From NCBI RefSeq assembly GCF_003334785.1, contig NZ_QOWV01000001.1: 64,000 bases of DNA. The stretch is one strand, 5' to 3'. The number at the start of each line of letters is the position of its first letter. Position 1 is the first letter of the stretch. This document shows, in pieces, positions 8,608-16,972 of the stretch. A program made the translations under genes and the position numbers. A model generated the notes under the pieces. It was not told where the DNA came from, did no database searches, and was given only the letters and a program-made list of their open reading frames with translations. The DNA comes from Escherichia coli (lineage in GTDB: Bacteria; Pseudomonadota; Gammaproteobacteria; Enterobacterales; Enterobacteriaceae).

Positions 8608-9815
8608 CAACTATTCTCCATCGCCGTCTGCGTTTTGGTATCGGGTTTGGCGACGGCTTTCGCGACAATAGCCGCGAGAATAACCAGCGCCAGTACAACC
8701 AGCATTGCACTACGTAATCCATAATGTTCGCCGAGATAGCCCAGCAGCGGCGGCCCGACGAGGAAAGCCAGATAACCGGTCGTTGCTACCACACTGACGC
8801 GGGTTGGTGCATCGGGGCCGGTATCGCTGGCGGCAGAAATGGTCAGCGGGAAGCCCAGCGAGGCACCCAGTCCCCAGAGTACAACAGACACCCCAGCGAC
8901 CCAGGCGCTATCGACAAAAATAATCAGCCCAATACCCAACGCCCCCATTAGTGCACTGGCCCGAACCACGGCAACGCGACTGTAACGGTCGATGAACCAA
9001 CCGCCGGTGAAGCGTCCAACGGTCATCCCCAGGGTAAAACCGGCATAAATCAGCGAGCCGGAAGTAGGGCTAAAACCGTGACCGTCAACCATTAATAAGG
9101 GTAACCAGTCGTTGGCAGAACCTTCGGCAAAGGCCATCGCCAGCACCACAACACCTATCAGCAGCAACTGGATATCGCGATAAAAAGGTACGCCTTTTTC
9201 GCCATGCTGGGTGCCATCGGCAGCATTTTTGCCCGTACCGTCAGGGATTGCCTGAATGGCGATATAAATAGGTGCGATACCTACCAGCGCCGCCAATAAA
9301 ATGTGCACCGTTGCCGGAACGCCAAAGGCCGTCAGTGCCATCCCGACACCTGCGCCTGCCAGCGTGCCCAGGCTATAAAAACCGTGCATCATCGGCAAAA
9401 CCGTCTTATTCATTTCTCGCTCAACGGCAGCACCTTCAACGTTTATCGCCACTTCCGCAGAACCAAAACTTGCCCCAAAGACGCCGAGACCAACGGCAAA
9501 GAGCAGGGGCGATGTCAGCCAGAGTGCCAGACTTAATATCATCATCCCGATCAATGCGCAGGACATCGTGACCAGGATGACATTACGTGTCCCAAAGCGT
9601 TTCACTAACCACGCCGAGCAGAGAATACCGCTCATCGAACCGATCGACAGACCAAAGAGAACACCGCCCATTTCAGCGATCGAGACAGAGAGAATATCGC
9701 GGATAGCAGGCGTACGGGTTGCCCAGGACGCCATTAACAGGCCTGGCAAAAAGAAGAACATAAACAGCGCCCAGGTTCGGCGTTTCAATGCATTACGTGA
9801 AGAATTTACGGTCAT
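8607..9815 (-). CDS. ybjJ: MFS-type inner-membrane transporter YbjJ
   Basis: 402 aa, 12-TM-like hydrophobic profile. Its stop overlaps the ybjI start. Confidence 0.9.
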
Positions 9816-9898
9816 AGATCACGTCAAAATAAGAAGAGGGAAGACAACATTAGCAAGGTTGTGTACATTTGTACACAATTGCAGAGAGAGGAAATGAC

Positions 9899-10435
9899 AT
9901 GCGTCGCGCTAACGATCCGCAACGGCGAGAAAAAATTATCCAGGCCACGCTGGAGGCGGTGAAACTTTACGGAATACATGCTGTTACGCACCGCAAAATT
10001 GCTACCCTTGCCGGGGTACCGTTGGGATCGATGACCTACTATTTTTCAGGAATTGATGAGTTGTTACTGGAGGCGTTCAGCAGTTTTACTGAGATCATGT
10101 CCCGGCAATATCAGGCATTTTTTAGCGATGTTAGTGATGCTCCGGGCGCATGCCAGGCTATCACCGATATGATCTACAGCTCACAGGTTGCAACGCCGGA
10201 TAACATGGAGCTGATGTACCAGCTCTACGCGCTGGCTAGCCGAAAACCGCTATTAAAAACGGTAATGCAAAACTGGATGCAGCGCAGTCAGCAAACGCTC
10301 GAACAATGGTTTGAACCCGGAACCGCCCGCGCGCTTGATGCGTTTATTGAGGGGATGACGCTGCATTTTGTCACCGACCGTAAGCCGCTATCGCGCGAGG
10401 AGATTTTGAGGATGGTTGAGAGGGTTGCAGGGTAG
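9899..10435 (+). CDS. rcdA: TetR-family regulator RcdA (YbjK)
   Basis: 178 aa from ATG 9899 ([35 protein letters not shown]...), with an N-terminal TetR HTH. Confidence 0.92.
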
Positions 10436-10451
10436 TAGATAAGTTTTAGAT

Positions 10452-10465
10452 AACAAAAAACCCAT
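10452..10465. repeat. attL core (direct repeat copy 1)
   Basis: AACAAAAAACCCAT is identical to 22039-22052. Confidence 0.8.
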
Positions 10466-10480
10466 TTATGTAAACGGGTT
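10452..10480 (-). terminator. Rho-independent terminator downstream of int, built from phage DNA plus the att core
   Basis: The minus strand reads AACCCGTTTA-CA-TAAATGGGTT followed by TTTTTTG. The stem (10459-10480) has one mismatch and the T-run lies within the att core. Confidence 0.6.
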
Positions 10481-10484
10481 AATG

Positions 10485-10521
10485 AAAACAATAAGTTAGG
10501 TTAAAAACAATAAGTTAGGTT
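10485..10521. repeat. Tandem direct repeat next to attL (candidate integrase arm-type sites)
   Basis: AAAACAATAAGTTAGGTT occurs at 10485-10502 and again at 10504-10521 (19-bp period). TGGTGGT-cag-TGGTGGT follows at 10521-10537. The repeat lies between the att core and the int stop. Confidence 0.5.
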
Positions 10522-10539
10522 GGTGGTCAGTGGTGGTTA

Positions 10540-11592
10540 TTACGGGGTAATGCCAACCGCTGCCGCCACTTTGTCGCCACTTGGCAGCGTTGCCAGAGGA
10601 TTGAAACGGAGCGCCGTTTCTAGATGATCCGGTGCCAGATGTGCGTAACGCATAGTCATTTTTATATCGTGGTGTCCGAGAATTTTTTGTAAGGCCAGAA
10701 TGTTTCCACCCGACATCATGAAGTGCGCCGCAAACGTATGGCGCAGAACGTGTGTGAGTTGACCGCGAGGGAGCACGATAGACGTTTTTTCCATCACGGA
10801 TAAAAATTGAAAATAGCAGTCTGTGAAGAAATTGAACCCATCAAGCGCCATGATCTCTTCGTAAAGCTCTTTACTGATAGGGATGCTTCTGTTTTTCTTC
10901 CCCTTCGTTCTGACAAAGGTAATTCGGTATTTGGTCACCTGTGAGCGGGTAAGATTTACGGCTTCACGCCAGCGTGCGCCTGTGCTTAAGCATATCTTAA
11001 CTACCAGTGCCAGAATTGGGTCCTGACGTTTGCAATCAGCCAGCAATTCAACAATCTGCTCATGGGTAAGCCATGCCATCTCTTTTTCTGCGATGGTGAA
11101 TTTTCGCATGTTCTCCAGTGGGTTCGGATACGACCATTCGCCCAGACGGGATAGTTCGCTAAAAACACTACTTAGATAGCTTTGCTCCAGGTTAATGGTG
11201 ACCGGGCTTGCTCCTTTCTTCCATTTCTCGCTGAAGTAGATCTCGCCTGTCAGGCGTTTATCTCGATAGTGGGCAAACATTTTAGAGGTGAGATCGGTTG
11301 CAAGAGGATTGCCCAGAGCGTCAACCATCAACAGCAATTTGTCATAGACATGCTGCCCAGCTGTCAGAGATTTACCATGTAGTTTGAACCATAGCTCAAC
11401 CACGTCTTTCAGTGTTCGACGATCCACTGATTCACCCAGCCAGGGCTTTGCTTCGGTTTCTTCCATCGTGTGGCGCTCAAAAGCCAGTGCTTCGCCTTTG
11501 GTGGCGAATTGTTTACGCACACGACGCCCACTTCGTCCGGCGGGGTAACATTCGCAAAGCCATTTCCCTGTGGTTAGTTTTCGTACTGCCAT
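10540..11592 (-). CDS. int: Tyrosine-recombinase integrase (P2/186 type)
   Basis: 350 aa starting MAVRKLTTGKWLCECYPAGRSGRRVRKQF.... The C-terminal catalytic region has TGARWREA, HVLRHTFAAH and GHHDIKMTMRYAHL (R-H-R-Y signature). It is adjacent to attL. Confidence 0.95.
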   Translation of the reverse strand: MAVRKLTTGKWLCECYPAGRSGRRVRKQFATKGEALAFERHTMEETEAKPWLGESVDRRTLKDVVELWFKLHGKSLTAGQHVYDKLLLMVDALGNPLATDLTSKMFAHYRDKRLTGEIYFSEKWKKGASPVTINLEQSYLSSVFSELSRLGEWSYPNPLENMRKFTIAEKEMAWLTHEQIVELLADCKRQDPILALVVKICLSTGARWREAVNLTRSQVTKYRITFVRTKGKKNRSIPISKELYEEIMALDGFNFFTDCYFQFLSVMEKTSIVLPRGQLTHVLRHTFAAHFMMSGGNILALQKILGHHDIKMTMRYAHLAPDHLETALRFNPLATLPSGDKVAAAVGITP

Positions 11593-11616
11593 AAAAAGCC
11601 CTCATATCAGAGGGCT
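11593..11616 (-). terminator. Hairpin plus T-run immediately upstream of the int start codon
   Basis: The minus strand reads AGCCCTC-TGATAT-GAGGGCT-TTTT-ATG(int). It is terminator-like, and its 3' arm GAGGG is also the only Shine-Dalgarno candidate for int. Confidence 0.55.
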
Positions 11617-11674
11617 AAATTTAACTGTATATGTAACCAGTAATCAATGTGTGATTACTATGAAACATACATTG

Positions 11675-13351
11675 CTAAGCAACATGTAGTTCATCGTTGG
11701 CGGAAGTGGCTGCTTTGCGCTCCTGCTCAATAGCTAGAGACTCTCTATATTCTTTCGCCTCTGCAAACATTGTCCAGTGGGCGTTGATGTTCATGTCTTC
11801 AATAACTGATTTGATTTCTTTTAAATTTACGTTAAAAAACTCTTTTCGTGAGTTAATTTTATTGACCTGCTTTTCGTTGAAAACTTTATGCAGATGGTTT
11901 TCTAATGATGGTGCATCATCACTATAAATCATCGCATGAACATCGAACGAAAAAGGAACACTAGCATCTCCGAGTTCACGAACACGATCAAGTGGTTCAA
12001 GGCGGCGTGTCATTCCAATTTTATATACATCTTCGCCAAATGAACCAATATTACTAATGATATAGACGTGGCCTGATCTGGTTTGTTGAGCCATAGAAAT
12101 AGCTCGTTGATTTTTAGCTTCAGCTTCTTCATATTTTAACTGTAGTTCAGCTATTTTTTGCTCTAAAGCTAAGCGTTGTTCTTCATTTGCAAGCATAAGT
12201 TCTTTCGTTGCTTTATTTATAGCTTGCTGAATAGCTTTTTCTTCTTTTTCAGCTTCTTTTATCGCTTTTTCATATTCTCTACGAGCTCTTTCCTCTTCAC
12301 GAAGCTGTTCTTTAATCCTTCTTTGCTCTTCTTTTTCTTCGAGCATAATTTCATTAACTGCTACACCCCATTTTAGCTCGTTGAGTCTTGCCTGAAGATA
12401 GATGTCACTTATTTTTGCGGACCTAAAGGCAGAGCCATTGTAATTTACTAGTTGAAATGCATCTTTTATTTCTTGGGAAAGTTTTCCAAAATTGTTGTGT
12501 TTGACTTTTGATAAAATACTGTCAACTCTTCCATTGAAGGCATCCAAAACAAAGTTTATGGCAGTATTACGCCTGTTTTGCTCAACATAATCACACGAAG
12601 CAGCTTTATTAGTTTTTATTAATGATTTGGTTAACTCTCTGGCTTTTTGTAATTCCTTGCCTGCATCTGTAAATTCATAATTTTCTGCCAGCTCATCAAG
12701 TACACTACGGTTAGGGATGATCCATTCATCACCATAACCTTCAATTTTATTTTTCATTGATTTTGCAACTGCTTCATATTTTTCTGCAAACTCTTTAGCT
12801 TCATATGCTGAACCAGCAATCTCCTTTGCTCTTTCTTCTGCATCAGAAATAATTTTTACTGCATTGTCATTAGCATTTGAGATTAGCTCATTTGCTTTAT
12901 TATTAGCATTATCAAGACGTTCTTTGGCTTTCAGGCGTGCATCGCGAGCGTCTTTGGTGATTGCTATAGCTTCGCTATTAGCGTTGCTTATTGTCATCTG
13001 AGCTTGATAATTTGCTTCGTTTACTGTTTTAGCCGCCTTAATTTGGGCTTCATCTATTTTTTGCTTGGCTATTGAGTCCGCATTTTTTATCTTATTCTCT
13101 GCATCCATTACTGCGCTGTGCAATTCTTCGTATTGCCACAATGGTGCTGCTCGCCCTTCAAGCTCTGATAATTCTCGTACGGTCTGTGCTAGTTTTTCTT
13201 GATTTTCAATCAGTTGGTTAGAAAGGGCTATGTTGTTAGCTGTCAGGTTATCTATAGCCGCTTTGTGTTTTTTACTTTGTTTAAATAATATTACAGCTAG
13301 AACAGGGGCGAGAAATGCTAATAAGAGTATAACGATGGCAAATGAATTCAT
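11675..13351 (-). CDS. Membrane-anchored coiled-coil protein with DUF4041-like core and C-terminal T5orf172/GIY-YIG-like nuclease domain (candidate anti-phage effector)
   Basis: 558 aa. Residues 4-23 are hydrophobic (FAIVILLLAFLAPVLAVILF) and followed by KQSKKHK. Residues ~30-200 and ~335-425 are charged heptad-like regions. Residues ~205-330 (YGDEWIIPNRSVLDELAENYEFTDAGKELQKAR...) look DUF4041-like. Residues ~428-520 (GHVYIISN..VYKIGMTRR..RVRELG..EFF) look T5orf172-like. An RBS AAAGGA lies 7 nt before the ATG, and the gene is AT-rich relative to its neighbours. Confidence 0.85.
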   Translation of the reverse strand: MNSFAIVILLLAFLAPVLAVILFKQSKKHKAAIDNLTANNIALSNQLIENQEKLAQTVRELSELEGRAAPLWQYEELHSAVMDAENKIKNADSIAKQKIDEAQIKAAKTVNEANYQAQMTISNANSEAIAITKDARDARLKAKERLDNANNKANELISNANDNAVKIISDAEERAKEIAGSAYEAKEFAEKYEAVAKSMKNKIEGYGDEWIIPNRSVLDELAENYEFTDAGKELQKARELTKSLIKTNKAASCDYVEQNRRNTAINFVLDAFNGRVDSILSKVKHNNFGKLSQEIKDAFQLVNYNGSAFRSAKISDIYLQARLNELKWGVAVNEIMLEEKEEQRRIKEQLREEERARREYEKAIKEAEKEEKAIQQAINKATKELMLANEEQRLALEQKIAELQLKYEEAEAKNQRAISMAQQTRSGHVYIISNIGSFGEDVYKIGMTRRLEPLDRVRELGDASVPFSFDVHAMIYSDDAPSLENHLHKVFNEKQVNKINSRKEFFNVNLKEIKSVIEDMNINAHWTMFAEAKEYRESLAIEQERKAATSANDELHVA

Positions 13352-13371
13352 TTTAAAATCCTTTTACTATA

Positions 13372-13968
13372 TTAATTCGAGACTATTGTACTTCTTATAC
13401 AAGCAACCACTTCAATATCAGAAAATGCACATTCAAAGCTATTCTCTGCTGTTGTAATTTTAATCATTCCTTTAGGAAGCCTTGTGATTTTTCGAATGGA
13501 ATAGGTTCCGTCGATATTGATTAACCAGTTTCCATCAAGTACTTCAGAAAATTTTTGATCACAAATGTATGTGACGAGTCCATCCTGAACAACAATTGGT
13601 GATGAAAGGTTTGCAGGAAGAAATGATGAATCGAAGACATATGAACCGTCTTCAATCATTTTGCCTGCGGCAAGGCGAAACTTAACAAGCTCTTCTGTAG
13701 CTGCTGTCAGCGAGCTTTGCTTAAGGCCTTGTCCGGTAGTTAACCATTTGAGGGAGGTTCCTGTTTCAAGAGCACATTGGATTATCCAGTCAGCAGGAAA
13801 TGTATCCCGCAAATACCTGTTCGCTAGTGTGCTTTTTGATACTTCCAAGTGATCAGCTAAAGCCTGTCGTGTCGTAAAGCCATAGGCTTCGACTAATCGC
13901 TCAATCGCAGCCTTACCACCTTTATTGGGATTTATTTTGATCTCACTTGGGTACTTTGATGTTGACAT
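13372..13968 (-). CDS. cI: Phage 186-type CI immunity repressor
   Basis: 198 aa. The N-terminal HTH region ERLVEAYGFTTRQALADHLEVSKSTLANRYLRDTFPADWIIQCALETGTSLKWLTTGQG resembles 186 CI as I recall it. It is divergent from the apl-cII early operon. Confidence 0.85.
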   Translation of the reverse strand: MSTSKYPSEIKINPNKGGKAAIERLVEAYGFTTRQALADHLEVSKSTLANRYLRDTFPADWIIQCALETGTSLKWLTTGQGLKQSSLTAATEELVKFRLAAGKMIEDGSYVFDSSFLPANLSSPIVVQDGLVTYICDQKFSEVLDGNWLINIDGTYSIRKITRLPKGMIKITTAENSFECAFSDIEVVACIRSTIVSN

Positions 13969-13990
13969 ATCTCTTTTGCGATCCTAGTAT
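13962..13990 (+). promoter_or_regulatory. Candidate early lytic promoter (pR/Pe equivalent)
   Basis: TTGACA (13962-13967), a 17-nt spacer, then TAGTAT (13985-13990). The -35 overlaps the cI start codon and the promoter points into apl-cII. Confidence 0.6.
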
Positions 13991-13997
13991 CAGTTTT

Positions 13998-14013
13998 GTA
14001 CCCAATTGGGTAC
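13998..14013. promoter_or_regulatory. Perfect 16-bp palindrome, candidate repressor operator
   Basis: GTACCCAATTGGGTAC lies immediately downstream of the candidate -10. An extra half-site TTGGGTAC is at 13947-13954. Confidence 0.5.
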
Positions 14014-14063
14014 TTGTCACGATTACTACAGGCTCACCACAAGCCAATAGGAGATGTTGCATC

Positions 14064-14285
14064 ATGACCCCTAACATTTCAATAACTCTGAATACGCCAC
14101 ACGTCACAATCGAGCGTTATAGCGAACTTACTGGTCTTTCAATCGACACAATCAACGATATGTTGGCGGATGGTCGCATTCCTCGGCATCGTCTTCGTAA
14201 AGACAAGAAAAGAGAAAAGGTAATGATCAACCTTGCTGCTCTTACCGTTGATGCACTTACTGATTGCAATGTTGTATTCAACTAG
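14064..14285 (+). CDS. Apl/Cox-like small HTH excisionase-repressor
   Basis: 73 aa from ATG 14064, with an AGGAG about 9 nt upstream. [32 protein letters not shown] is HTH-like. It is the first gene of the rightward operon, as apl is in 186 and cox in P2. Confidence 0.7.
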
Positions 14286-14317
14286 TTCCATTTTGGGATA
14301 CATCAGAGGTGTCGACC

Positions 14318-14827
14318 ATGTTTGATTACCAAGTTTCCAAACATCCACATTTTGATGAAGCCTGTCGAGCATTCGCACTGCGCCACAATCTGGTGCAACT
14401 GGCAGAACGTGCGGGCATGAATGTGCAGATTCTGCGGAACAAGCTGAACCCAGCTCAACCTCATTTATTAACCGCACCAGAAATCTGGCTGCTTACCGAT
14501 CTGACTGAAGATTCAACGTTGGTAGATGGTTTTCTGGCACAGATTCATTGTCTGCCATGTGTACCGATTAATGAGGTAGCAAAAGAGAAACTGCCGCATT
14601 ACGTCATGAGCGCAACTGCAGAGATCGGGCGTGTTGCAGCAGGTGCGGTATCTGGTGATGTAAAAACTAGTGCCGGTCGTCGTGATGCTATCAGCAGCAT
14701 TAACTCTGTAACACGACTGATGGCGCTGGCTGCTGTTTCATTGCAAGCCCGTTTACAGGCTAATCCTGCGATGGCGAGTGCAGTTGATACCATGACTGGC
14801 CTTGGTGCTTCATTCGGTTTGCTGTGA
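14318..14827 (+). CDS. cII: Phage 186-type CII lysogeny-establishment activator
   Basis: 169 aa from ATG 14318 (RBS AGAGG). [45 protein letters not shown]...[26 protein letters not shown] closely resembles 186 CII as I recall it. Confidence 0.85.
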
Positions 14828-14834
14828 GGTGTTT

Positions 14835-15131
14835 ATGCTGACGAAAGAACCATCATTTGCATCGCTGCTGGTAAAACAAAGCCCGGCAATGCACTACGGT
14901 CACGGCTGGATCACGGGTGAGGATGGAAAACGCTGGCATCCATGTCATTCACAAGATGAATTGCTGTCTGAATTGACCACGAGGAAACGGAGAAAGTCCA
15001 AATGTATGCGGCAGAAAGTGAAGTGGTTTATCAGTTTCGTTACAGAGGGGAGAGTTATTCAGTACCTGAAGATGATTTGCTCTGTTGCTATCCGTCATTG
15101 TCGGGCGATGGCAGTTACTTTTTCACGTTAA
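14835..15131 (+). CDS. Hypothetical early protein (position of fil in 186)
   Basis: 98-aa ORF from ATG 14835 (RBS GAGGTG). The first ~55 aa look protein-like (MLTKEPSFASLLVKQSPAMHYGHGWITGEDGKRWHPCHSQDELL), but the tail overlaps the next ORF by 130 nt and looks like noise. Confidence 0.4.
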   Translation: MLTKEPSFASLLVKQSPAMHYGHGWITGEDGKRWHPCHSQDELLSELTTRKRRKSKCMRQKVKWFISFVTEGRVIQYLKMICSVAIRHCRAMAVTFSR

Positions 15132-15226
15132 AGGATGGGACGTTTTTACGGGGAGAGCAGGTTAAAGAGACGATACGAAAAAATGTATCTCCTCTTGAGC
15201 GTTACCGTAAGAACAAAGAACGATAG
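15002..15226 (+). CDS. Hypothetical early protein
   Basis: 74-aa ORF with GGAG about 10 nt upstream. It overlaps the 3' part of the previous ORF in another frame. Confidence 0.45.
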   Translation: MYAAESEVVYQFRYRGESYSVPEDDLLCCYPSLSGDGSYFFTLKDGTFLRGEQVKETIRKNVSPLERYRKNKER

Positions 15227-15248
15227 CTGCGTTTGGGGGATATGAAGT

Positions 15249-15590
15249 ATGGCAATTAATGGCGCTGCAGCAACTGTTCCATTAAGCCCCGGTGAACGCC
15301 TGAATGGACTTAATCACATTGCGGAGTTAAGGGCGAAAGTTTTTGGCCTGAATATTGAGTCAGAGCTTGAGCGGTTTATTAAAGATATGCGTGATCCACG
15401 GGATATCAATAATGAACAAAATAAACGGGCACTGGCTGCCATATTCTTTATGGCAAAAATTCCAGCTGAACGTCATAGCATCAGCATTAATGAGCTGACC
15501 ACTGACGAAAAGCGGGAGCTGATTAAAGCAATGAATCATTTTCGTGCAGTGGTGAGCTTATTTCCCAGACGGCTAACCATGCCGAATTAA
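15249..15590 (+). CDS. Hypothetical early protein
   Basis: 113-aa ORF in the early operon, non-overlapping. No motif recognised. Confidence 0.55.
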   Translation: MAINGAAATVPLSPGERLNGLNHIAELRAKVFGLNIESELERFIKDMRDPRDINNEQNKRALAAIFFMAKIPAERHSISINELTTDEKRELIKAMNHFRAVVSLFPRRLTMPN

Positions 15591-16118: not shown

Positions 16119-16972
16119 GCACCATCCTGAAATGGGCGGGAAATAAAACCGCCATTATGCCAGAACTGAAAAAATACCTTCCTGCTGGCCCGCGACTGGT
16201 TGAACCTTTCGCGGGTTCCTGTGCTGTGATGATGGAAACGGATTATCCCAGCTATCTGGTTGCGGATATTAATCCTGATTTAATCAACCTCTATAAAAAG
16301 GTTGCCGCTGATTGTGAATCGTTTATATCTCGCGCCAGAGTTTTATTTGAGATCGCAAACAGGGAGGTGGCTTATTACAACATAAGGCAGGAGTTTAACT
16401 GCTCAACTGAAATTACTGATTTCATGAAAGCGGTATATTTCCTGTATCTCAATCGTCACGGTTACCGTGGTTTATGTCGCTATAACAAGAGCGGGCATTT
16501 CAACATTCCCTACGGTAATTATAAAAATCCGTATTTCCCTGAAAAAGAACTTCGTACATTTGCAGAAAAAGCCCAGCGAGCAACGTTTATCTGCGCCAGC
16601 TTTGATGAAACGCTGGCGATGTTGAAGGCGGGAGATGTGGTGTATTGCGATCCGCCATATGACGGTACGTTTTCCGGCTATCACACTGATGGTTTCACTG
16701 AAGATGACCAGTATCACCTGGCATCCGTTCTTGAACATCGGTCATCAGAAGGACATCCGGTCATTGTTTCTAACAGTGACACATCCCTGATCCGTTCGCT
16801 GTATCGCAATTTTACTCACCACTATATCAAGGTAAAACGCAGCATCGGTGTGGCAGCTGGCGAGGGTAAATCAGCAACAGAAATCATTGCTGTTTCCGGG
16901 CCGCGCTGCTGGATGGGATTTGATTATTCGCGTGGCGTGGATAGTTCTGCCGTGTACGGAGTACGTGCATGA
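16115..16972 (+). CDS. dam: Prophage DNA adenine methyltransferase (Dam family)
   Basis: 285 aa from ATG 16115 (ATGA overlap with the upstream stop). It has [23 protein letters not shown], the SAM motif EPFAGSCAV and the catalytic DPPY (VYCDPPYDG). Confidence 0.9.

Follow-up and report, generated by a model that had tools for sequence, protein, structure and literature searches.

The 64,000 nucleotides (nt) of Escherichia coli DNA analysed here, which we refer to as the window, include a 186-like prophage that occupies the rcdA site. Its gene int encodes a tyrosine integrase, whose start codon is backed by tblastn searches: across 77 related loci, nearly every match opens with residue 1 at this ATG. 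Upstream of int we find a cargo gene and, further upstream, the repressor gene cI. The cargo protein matches PADLOC PD-Lambda-1 (2.4e-120). Under its newer name SNIPE, the latter has been characterised as a nuclease bound to the membrane, which cuts phage DNA during injection (PMC13190303). Since the SNIPE gene starts 20 nt past the stop of cI, the two genes are presumably co-transcribed. The subject of this study is the gap of 82 nt that separates the cargo gene from int, which in all its length constitutes a conserved cassette with a CII-type site, a -35 element, a LexA box in the promoter spacer, a -10 element, a hairpin and the ATG of int following each other in this order (Table 1). An initial annotation of the region had drawn attention to the hairpin, which on the minus strand was read as AGCCCTC-TGATAT-GAGGGCT-TTTT-ATG at 11616-11590, ending exactly at the int start. 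This reading is correct in every detail, whereas the function that had been ascribed to the hairpin requires revision.

Table 1. Features of the int locus and of neighbouring regions in the window (aa, amino acids).
Feature	Position	Strand	Description
int	10540-11592	minus	350-aa P2/186-type tyrosine integrase; ATG 11592-11590; Pfam Int_N 3e-32, Phage_integrase 7e-22
T-run TTTT	11593-11596	minus	UUUUU when the U that closes the stem is included; ATG 11592-11590 next
Hairpin	11597-11616	minus	5' arm AGCCCTC 11616-11610, loop TGATAT 11609-11604, 3' arm GAGGGCT 11603-11597
Predicted -10 TTAAAT of the int promoter (Pint)	11619-11624	minus	Equivalent hexamer called by a promoter scanner in relatives
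LexA (SOS) box TACTGGTTACATATACAGTT	11623-11642	minus	Core CTG-N10-CAG 11640-11625; fills the 17-bp promoter spacer; identified with a position weight matrix
Predicted -35 TTGATT	11642-11647	minus	TTGACC or TTGACA in most relatives
186-CII-type inverted repeat ATGTATG-N12-CACACAT	11647-11672	minus	Half-sites 11672-11666 and 11653-11647
Cargo gene SNIPE / PD-lambda-1	11675-13351	minus	558 aa; DUF4041 and T5orf172/GIY-YIG-like nuclease domain
cI	13372-13968	minus	186-type CI repressor, 198 aa
Own pE-type CII site	14318-14344	minus	Located at the 5' end of cII (ATGTTTG-N13-CAAACAT); served for comparison with the repeat next to int
gpU	20070-20555		
gpD	20552-21652		
Host ybjL	22197-23882	minus	

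A LexA box fills the spacer of a predicted int promoter

The region upstream of int was compared in 72 sequences, namely the window and 71 loci sampled with one genome per species. Of these, 40 share the pattern ACATTGAC(C/A)-A-CTG-N10-CAG-T(T/A)AAAT, which ends 29-36 nt before the ATG and can be read as TTGACx for the -35 element and TnnAAT for the -10 element, with an SOS box occupying the 17 bp between them. For the scoring of LexA sites, we used a position weight matrix (PWM) derived from 19 canonical boxes of E. coli, whose own scores range from 12.7 to 26.8 with a median of 20.6. In a positive control, this matrix finds the annotated LexA site of p95 in phage 186 at its exact coordinates with a score of 27.4 bits. 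The box in the window reaches 23.1 bits and thus exceeds the training median, whereas the next-best site in the 64 kb scores 11.0 bits. A similar value is obtained for the 40 loci containing the module (median 23.5 bits, range 14.3-26.8), compared to a median of -0.8 in loci without it, and 39 of the 46 hits of at least 15 bits that were detected in 512 kb of loci are located at the site of the int cassette. Less specific searches did not recover the site: the idealised 20-mer TACTG(TA)5CAGTA with up to three mismatches has no match in the window, where the actual box deviates at four positions, and matches to CTGT-N8-ACAG with one mismatch are not above chance (25 compared to 18 ± 4.7 expected). 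In the intact relatives AR_0085 and 813R9 and in the remnant of BL21, strong LexA boxes are found at just two places, upstream of int and upstream of an operon at the position of tum that encodes a 62-aa protein and a DinI-like protein, the latter operon being deleted in the window.

The promoter itself was recognized by an independent scanner in relatives, where it is called as TTTACA-16-TAAAAT (10/12 matches, top hit) and as TTGACC-18-TAAATT. When viral contigs of IMG/VR were scanned with the motif only, 57 of 80 hits had a homologue of int 25-30 nt downstream, and the spacers of the other 23 are unlike an SOS box. The sequence shows traits expected of a LexA-controlled promoter, namely a 20-nt site scoring at the level of known sites that overlaps the core promoter and is conserved across genera. 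In light of the conserved promoter, the LexA box in its spacer and the CII-type repeat adjoining its -35 element, int most likely has its own regulated promoter of the sigma-70 type, which speaks against the assumption underlying the initial annotation that the gene is supplied by transcripts running in from cI and the cargo gene. This promoter is predicted to be repressed by LexA, and would hence be inducible by DNA damage.

A CII-type repeat adjoins the -35 element

The inverted repeat at the upstream end of the cassette shares its last T with the first T of the -35 element. Its sequence is conserved across relatives as ATGT(A/T)TG-N12/13-CA(A/T)ACAT and corresponds to the annotated CII site at pE of phage 186 (ATGTTTG-N13-CAAACAT). 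The same half-sites are present at the own pE of the window prophage, which is the sole exact match in the 64 kb (0.02 expected), and the int-proximal repeat agrees with the half-sites ATGTTTG/CAAACAT of the pE type. Over the 14 half-site positions of 107 distinct module sequences, we counted no mismatch in 24, one in 38, two in 37, three in six and four in two cases, so that 99 sequences deviate at two positions at most, compared to mostly 5-7 in random segments. The spacer between the half-sites comprises 12 nt in 58 and 13 nt in 40 sequences. These similarities make a response of the int promoter to CII plausible, but not a membership of the site in the pE type.

An alternative assignment with a geometry resembling pE, where the -10 element would be located inside the LexA box 10 nt past the right half-site, was rejected, as the hexamer at this position is not conserved (TCAAAC in many loci). 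In the lineage of the window, we also noticed a 7-bp inverted repeat, GTAATCA-CACAT-TGATTAC at 11640-11658 on the minus strand, which overlaps with the -35 element and the first base of the LexA core. This lineage-specific repeat is the product of one variant in the -35 element (TTGACC to TTGATT) and another in the half-site (CATACAT to CACACAT), and it may weaken the promoter, add a hairpin to read-through RNA or have arisen by chance.

The Shine-Dalgarno sequence of int is paired in a covarying hairpin

At the downstream end of the cassette, the hairpin directly precedes the start codon of int. As stated in the initial annotation, the only Shine-Dalgarno-like sequence of int, GAGGG, is buried in the 3' arm of the stem, since no other purine-rich run of this kind is found in the 25 nt before the ATG. 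The GAGG ends 7 nt ahead of the ATG, and the T-run between both doubles as U-tract of a potential terminator and as spacer between the Shine-Dalgarno sequence and the start codon. In RNAfold predictions for a segment of 131 nt, the hairpin is part of the minimum free energy and of the centroid structure (z = -3.27), and its stability amounts to about -13.3 kcal/mol. A consensus scanner ranks it as top terminator-like site in the region 9500-15500 (7 bp, five G-C pairs, loop of 6), in which such sites as a class are just about twofold enriched (14 compared to 6.0 ± 2.2 in shuffles).

The best support for the hairpin being more than a chance occurrence comes from comparative evidence, as a hairpin is found at the same position with differing stem sequences throughout 79 distinct leaders, extending from the -10 element to the ATG and drawn from 129 instances. 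Nearly all of these leaders fold with energies between -7 and -19 kcal/mol with the Shine-Dalgarno sequence located in the 3' arm, and among the module loci a stable hairpin is present in about 36 of 40. The stems belong to at least ten unrelated types, such as AGCCCTC/GAGGGCT, ATGCTCTC/GAGGGCAT, CACATTCTC/GAGAATGTG and ACCCCCTT/AAGGGGGT, and further CCTCCATT/AATGGAGG, CTCTCCTAA/TTAGGAGAG and ACAGTCCTC/AGGGGGCTGT. A clean compensatory change, from AGCCCTC/GAGGGCT to AGTCCTC/GAGGACT, is observed in elements with 98-99% identical int.

Because a MAFFT alignment of all leaders places the stems of different lineages in different registers, it does not provide a meaningful single consensus structure. 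We have thus relied on folds of individual sequences, on a test in which arms were swapped between leaders and on a conservative count of the pairs found in the window, and refrained from using a covariance model, since an alignment fitted to the model would favour the structure. When compared to shuffled sequences, the leaders show a median z-score of -5.0, with values below -2 in 27 of 30 cases. Native leaders fold with a median of -11.75 kcal/mol, compared to -4.3 kcal/mol after the exchange of arms from dissimilar leaders. In the register-blind MAFFT alignment, the seven pairs of the window are paired in 76.8% of the cases with 42 cells changed on both sides, which is not matched in any of 500 shuffles, and the covariation score of 0.332 compares to 0.268 in shuffles and to at most 0.219 if the partners are slid. 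Elements, conservation, covariation and genomic contexts were in each case read directly from the compared loci. On this basis, the pairing of the Shine-Dalgarno sequence is an evolutionarily conserved property of the hairpin, which appears to be held by selection.

The predicted role of the hairpin as terminator differs between lineages

In the window, two sequence features of an intrinsic terminator, a G+C-rich stem-loop and a U-tract directly 3' of the stem, are present. The hairpin is located 59 nt after the SNIPE stop, and no other terminator-like structure is found between the stop of the cargo gene at 11675 and int. Stretches of at least four T after the stem are restricted to the group of Escherichia, Klebsiella, Enterobacter, Citrobacter and Raoultella; in Yersinia, Serratia, Rahnella and Pantoea, the stem adjoins the ATG without a U-tract. 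We have extended this comparison to 116 distinct loci, in which a separate strong terminator was sought within 110 nt upstream of the -35 element. In 68 of these loci, the Shine-Dalgarno hairpin is terminator-like and no separate strong terminator is found, while in 11 loci a canonical terminator directly precedes the CII-type site (e.g. AGCCCGCTCAGCGGGCTTTTT) and the Shine-Dalgarno hairpin lacks a U-tract. None of the 116 loci contains both a U-tract hairpin and a separate terminator. A Fisher test of this complementarity yields p = 3e-5, a value that is inflated by the kinship of the sequences.

Since a U-tract and a separate terminator exclude each other across loci, the hairpin of the window lineage plausibly ends the cI-cargo transcript, and together with the T-run it would constitute a credible intrinsic terminator. 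The attenuation of read-through from cI and the cargo gene, as put forward in the initial annotation, is thus plausible for the lineage of the window, where no other terminator-like structure is found in the gap, but it would not extend to the lineages that lack the T-run.

The cassette is widespread and associated with diverse upstream genes

The cassette region was detected in 1095 of 5426 complete E. coli genomes (about 20%), including BL21, which carries a variant of the cassette, and it is also found across Enterobacterales. In phages 186 and PSP3, the cassette was looked for and not found. In loci without the module, the ATG of int is located within about 10 nt of the stop of an upstream open reading frame (ORF), which mostly encodes a CI-type repressor of about 200 aa, as in 186. 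In module loci the gap comprises at least 66 nt and the upstream genes are highly variable. Besides SNIPE, these genes encode AbiU/AIPR, HEC-01 (AAA_21 and DUF4276), KAP NTPases (PDC-S20), PDC-M18A, HEPN and ASCH proteins and many ORFs without family. Relatives from E. coli and Klebsiella with the same int carry an ORF of 63 or 325 aa between cI and int and keep the hairpin and the T-run adjoining the int ATG, with some of the stems being 1 bp longer (ATGCTCTC/GAGGGCAT). Relatives remain homologous to the window up to about 11654-11672, almost as far as the SNIPE stop, which is only a few nt away. Finally, in Pectobacterium, Rahnella, Pantoea and related genera, the cassette and int are located downstream of gpD-ogr, where there is no cI transcript. 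As judged from these contexts, the cassette travels with int and not with the cargo. In the literature that we have searched, a coarse 'integrase-primase' defence hotspot is among the nearest items.

Several ORFs located in the cI-int slot of loci in the range L009-L077, with lengths of 201, 350, 309, 328, 395, 418 and 507 aa, have no match in Pfam or PADLOC and are candidates for new defence genes. In two loci, we also found LexA boxes in the vicinity of cargo genes. One of them (21.4 bits, L077 1295-1314) belongs to a Brenneria prophage, in whose cI-int slot it precedes a KAP-NTPase gene (1386-2903) by about 70 nt, and the other (23.8 bits, L023 195-214) is found upstream of the cargo in a Serratia locus. 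Some of the defence cargo may thus itself be under SOS control.

The predicted transcription start divides the hairpin

A further property of the cassette concerns the position of the hairpin relative to the promoter. Across 40 loci, the G+C-rich 5' arm starts 0-5 nt past the -10 element and A-U extensions enter the -10, resulting in an overall range of -5 to +5 nt. In the window, the predicted start of transcription at about 11612, the seventh nt after the -10, resides inside the 5' arm, and a start at the equivalent position of the 40 loci leaves 0-4 of the 6-14 bp of the stem. Since the 5' arm begins 0-5 nt after the -10, RNA originating from the int promoter should escape the hairpin, whose full form should be restricted to RNA entering from upstream. 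Calculated for 34 leaders, the median probability of the Shine-Dalgarno zone being unpaired is 0.22 in read-through RNA and 0.48 in RNA from the int promoter, although these numbers describe the model and do not test it. The occlusion of int translation that had been proposed in the initial annotation is thus upheld with respect to the conserved pairing of the Shine-Dalgarno sequence, but should not affect RNA from the int promoter, which would start inside the 5' arm and lack the hairpin.

These features suggest a mechanism in which the fate of the RNA would depend on its origin. Read-through RNA, either transcribed from pL/pE via cI and SNIPE or entering from ogr, would carry both arms of the hairpin and be terminated at the U-tract. 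In RNA that has passed the terminator, the ribosome-binding site of int would be locked in a stem with a stability of about -13 kcal/mol. Conversely, RNA from the int promoter would start inside or after the 5' arm and, devoid of the stem, would be neither terminated nor translationally blocked. The promoter would be repressed by the host LexA until DNA is damaged, in parallel to the LexA-controlled operon that intact relatives carry at the tum position, and the phage CII would probably activate it during the establishment of lysogeny, as in case of pI of phage lambda. The hairpin would thus act selectively on read-through RNA instead of throttling all int expression. As net effect, the expression of int would be insulated from its genomic context, and diverse defence genes may for that reason be able to reside between cI and int and to share the expression of cI. 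Binding of LexA and CII, the site of initiation, termination and differential translation are predicted steps in this scheme. We consider its overall outline, a self-contained int cassette composed of a promoter controlled by LexA and CII and a hairpin specific to read-through, as probable, although with a confidence that is moderate rather than high.

Evaluation of the proposed mechanism and its alternatives

Several observations weigh against the mechanism described above. Its weakest step is the start inside the 5' arm, which was placed by the usual distance of 6-9 nt from the -10 element. The window does not contain a purine at positions 5-10 past the -10, which makes the start position uncertain, and initiation at A11616 or G11615 would leave nearly the whole stem in the RNA of the int promoter. 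With TTGATT and TTAAAT as -35 and -10 elements, the promoter of the window is also weaker than the promoters of its relatives and, with 8/12 matches, it was not called by the scanner. The LexA PWM relies on a training set of 19 boxes, though it was validated on p95 of 186. With respect to CII, the distance between the centres of the half-sites is 19 bp in the window (12-nt spacer) compared to the 20 bp that characterise pE, and the site is located upstream of a near-consensus -35 element, with its centre at about -47.5, instead of flanking a weak -35 as found in pE. Moreover, 37 of the 116 loci contain neither a U-tract nor a separate nearby terminator, and termination is thus not universal. 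The common descent of the sequences inflates the shuffle and Fisher statistics. Finally, in lysogens of 186 int is expressed together with cI without detriment, and the selective reason for an insulation is for that reason not obvious. The co-transcription of both genes in lysogens of 186 equally weakens the rationale of the initial annotation, according to which the hairpin serves to keep Int low in the lysogen.

Among the alternatives, the one that best withstands the evidence accepts the promoter as real but places its start at or before 11616, with the complete stem acting as constitutive translational brake and/or as 5' stabiliser that is perhaps opened by a factor or by temperature. The absence of a purine at canonical start positions of the window and the possible initiation at A11616/G11615 would be in line with this explanation, as would leaders of the Rahnella type, which would keep 6 bp if transcription started at the fifth nt. 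We nevertheless regard it as unlikely, since the 5' arm overlaps with or adjoins the -10 element in many variants (L006, L018, L020, L026) and cannot be fully transcribed in these cases. In lineages with a T-run, a complete hairpin would in addition end the promoter's own RNA about 20 nt past its start, and the stems are G+C-rich without the mismatches that are typical of RNA thermometers.

Still less probable is a scenario in which int lacks a promoter of its own and is expressed only from transcripts that run on from cI and the cargo gene, with the hairpin attenuating this transcript and hiding the ribosome-binding site on every int mRNA to keep Int at a low level. The expression of int from the cI operon in phage 186 provides a precedent, the hairpin, the U-tract and the Shine-Dalgarno sequence in the stem are all in place, and the -35 and -10 elements of the window are weak enough to be missed by a scanner. 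However, the -35, LexA box and -10 together with the CII-type site are located directly upstream of int in every locus that carries the hairpin. The cassette also follows gpD-ogr, where it would receive no transcript from cI, and loci in which cI and int are coupled have neither the hairpin nor the gap.

We assign a low probability to the assumption that the CTG-N10-CAG and ATGTWTG repeats bind other phage proteins or function as RNA or DNA structures and that int is not under SOS control. Although an RNA hairpin can likewise be drawn for the upstream repeat, this repeat is conserved in sequence and not just in its pairing and equals the annotated CII half-sites, and the box fits the full 20-nt LexA matrix, flanks and A/T-rich centre included, as well as genuine E. 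coli sites do. It is very improbable that the hairpin is simply the terminator of an inserted cargo ('moron') gene that coincidentally overlaps with the Shine-Dalgarno sequence: whereas its position shortly after the SNIPE stop and its being the sole terminator-like element in the gap would suit this role, it is present with unrelated cargo, the homology between relatives spans the whole gap to the cargo stop and lineages without U-tract still pair the Shine-Dalgarno sequence by compensatory changes. The least probable of all is a small RNA encoded in the gap and ending at the hairpin terminator, as suggested by a match to RyhB (RF00057) at 11590-11658 on the minus strand (28.5 bits, E = 0.0036), since this Rfam search of 601 nt yielded nothing above threshold, the score falls well short of the gathering score of 55 and is most likely driven by the terminal hairpin and the U-run, and no conserved promoter is found upstream of the gap, where the cargo differs between relatives.

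Organization of the prophage remnant

The prophage in the window is a deletion remnant of about 11 kb, which comprises the genes from int through dam, followed by an ORF of 1034 aa, gpU, gpD and the host gene ybjL, whereas the host genes rcdA, ybjJ and ybjI are located downstream of int. Of the prophage genes, int, SNIPE, cI and cII are retained, the product of the latter belonging to Phage_CP76, whereas the tum-position operon has been lost together with all genes for head and lysis and the majority of the tail genes. The 1034-aa ORF, located in the part of the remnant at 16969-21652, contains an N-terminal gpA replication-protein domain (Phage_GPA, residues 188-435), and its C-terminal part apparently originates from a tail tape-measure gene, as indicated solely by the annotation of relatives. 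The deposited record ON470620 was considered as map of the window prophage and rejected, as the window holds a shorter deletion remnant. This record (ON470620.1, 'Escherichia phage vB_EcoM-813R9, partial genome') corresponds to a prophage region obtained by prediction, and host genes make up about 13 kb of it, with artP-ybjT at one end and rcdA-yliI at the other. In its sequence the tail-fibre gene H adjoins ybjT, and it thus does not represent a clean phage genome.

In relatives that contain the tum-position operon, two adjacent LexA boxes (23.9 and 11.2-16.1 bits) precede the 62-aa ORF and the DinI-like gene at the position that corresponds to p95-tum of 186 (L206 29177-29211 in E. coli AR_0085, L003 8654-8688 in BL21 and L085 at about 21634-21668). 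The two boxes and the gene pair suggest a split or shortened SOS module of the Tum type. Another hairpin of 9 bp followed by TTTTTTG is located at 10459-10480 on the minus strand, about 60 nt past the int stop and between int and the convergent rcdA, and could be the terminator of int or part of the attachment-site region.

Relationship to known systems

By analogy, the closest mechanistic counterpart of the cassette is the fold-back of IS10 and IS50, where the ribosome-binding site of the transposase reportedly pairs with an upstream segment solely in RNA entering from outside, while the element's own promoter starts downstream of this segment. In both systems, the ribosome-binding site of a recombinase gene would pair with an upstream segment in read-through RNA. 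Unlike IS10 and IS50, the int cassette serves the tyrosine integrase of a prophage and not a transposase, its stem in the lineage of the window also has a U-tract and should terminate, and its internal promoter is predicted to be under the control of LexA and probably of CII. The protection of IS10/Tn10 from external promoters by 'fold-back inhibition' is attributed to Davis, Simons & Kleckner (1985, Cell 43:379) in a later article (PMC13181058).

In phage lambda, int is activated by CII (PMC7708051). As for pI and sib of lambda, int of the cassette would have a dedicated promoter for the activator of lysogeny, and the fate of the RNA would be decided by its origin via RNA structure. Lambda, however, discriminates by a 3' RNase III site (sib), whereas the cassette would do so by a 5' hairpin split at the start; lambda int is not known to have a LexA operator and the CII family of 186 is unrelated to lambda CII. 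Phage 186 belongs to the same phage family as the window prophage. Both have CI, CII and Int proteins of the same families as well as the CII half-sites ATGTTTG/CAAACAT, and the LexA box that 186 carries at the tum position is also found in intact relatives of the window prophage. In 186, where the cI stop overlaps with the int start, int has neither a promoter of its own nor a LexA box or a hairpin, whereas in the window a defence gene stands between cI and int, and int possesses a separate cassette.

A spacer-filling LexA box as in the cassette is also present in the E. coli recA promoter (TTGATA-CTGTATGAGCATACAG-TATAAT), although there is no homology past the consensus elements and recA is not known to have such a leader hairpin. 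LexA-repressed promoters of integron integrases have reportedly been described by Guerin et al. in 2009 and by Cambray et al. Integron IntI thus shares with the cassette a LexA box overlapping the promoter of a tyrosine recombinase, but it belongs to another recombinase lineage and host clade and is not known to have a CII-type site or a hairpin split by the start that would hide the Shine-Dalgarno sequence or act as terminator. Direct control by LexA is known for this recombinase (PMC3108266), and a LexA site has been suggested at the integrase of a Firmicute phage (PMC3998124). For P2/186-like phages, we did not find a description of an int promoter controlled by LexA or CII or of such a hairpin, within a coverage of the literature that is incomplete. 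The cassette is apparently undescribed and would combine known principles, a LexA operator, a CII-type site and sequestration and termination specific to read-through, within about 85 bp.

Implications for 186-like prophages

In a broader view, we tentatively propose, with chances that we place somewhat short of even, that a widespread 186-like lineage has swapped the cI-int operon for a portable cassette of less than 85 bp. In this cassette, CII would turn on int for integration and LexA would turn it on for excision in the SOS response, in parallel to the operon at the tum position, and a hairpin that unites terminator and anti-Shine-Dalgarno functions and is bisected by the transcription start would blind int to transcription from upstream, thereby making the cI-int junction a safe dock for SNIPE, AbiU and HEC-01. 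If true, this would revise the P2/186 paradigm of integrase supply. In 186 the lysogenic promoter, from which int is expressed with cI, is shut off at induction, and an int promoter controlled by LexA would directly account for the supply of Int from then on in the large lineage that carries the cassette. It would also offer a mechanism by which the cI-int junction accepts diverse anti-phage genes without deregulating recombination. The combination of a terminator specific to incoming transcripts with a lock on the ribosome site would constitute a compact natural design, which could serve as insulator in synthetic biology. For the large family of 186-like prophages, the cassette probably permits the expression of int independently of the upstream repressor and defence genes.

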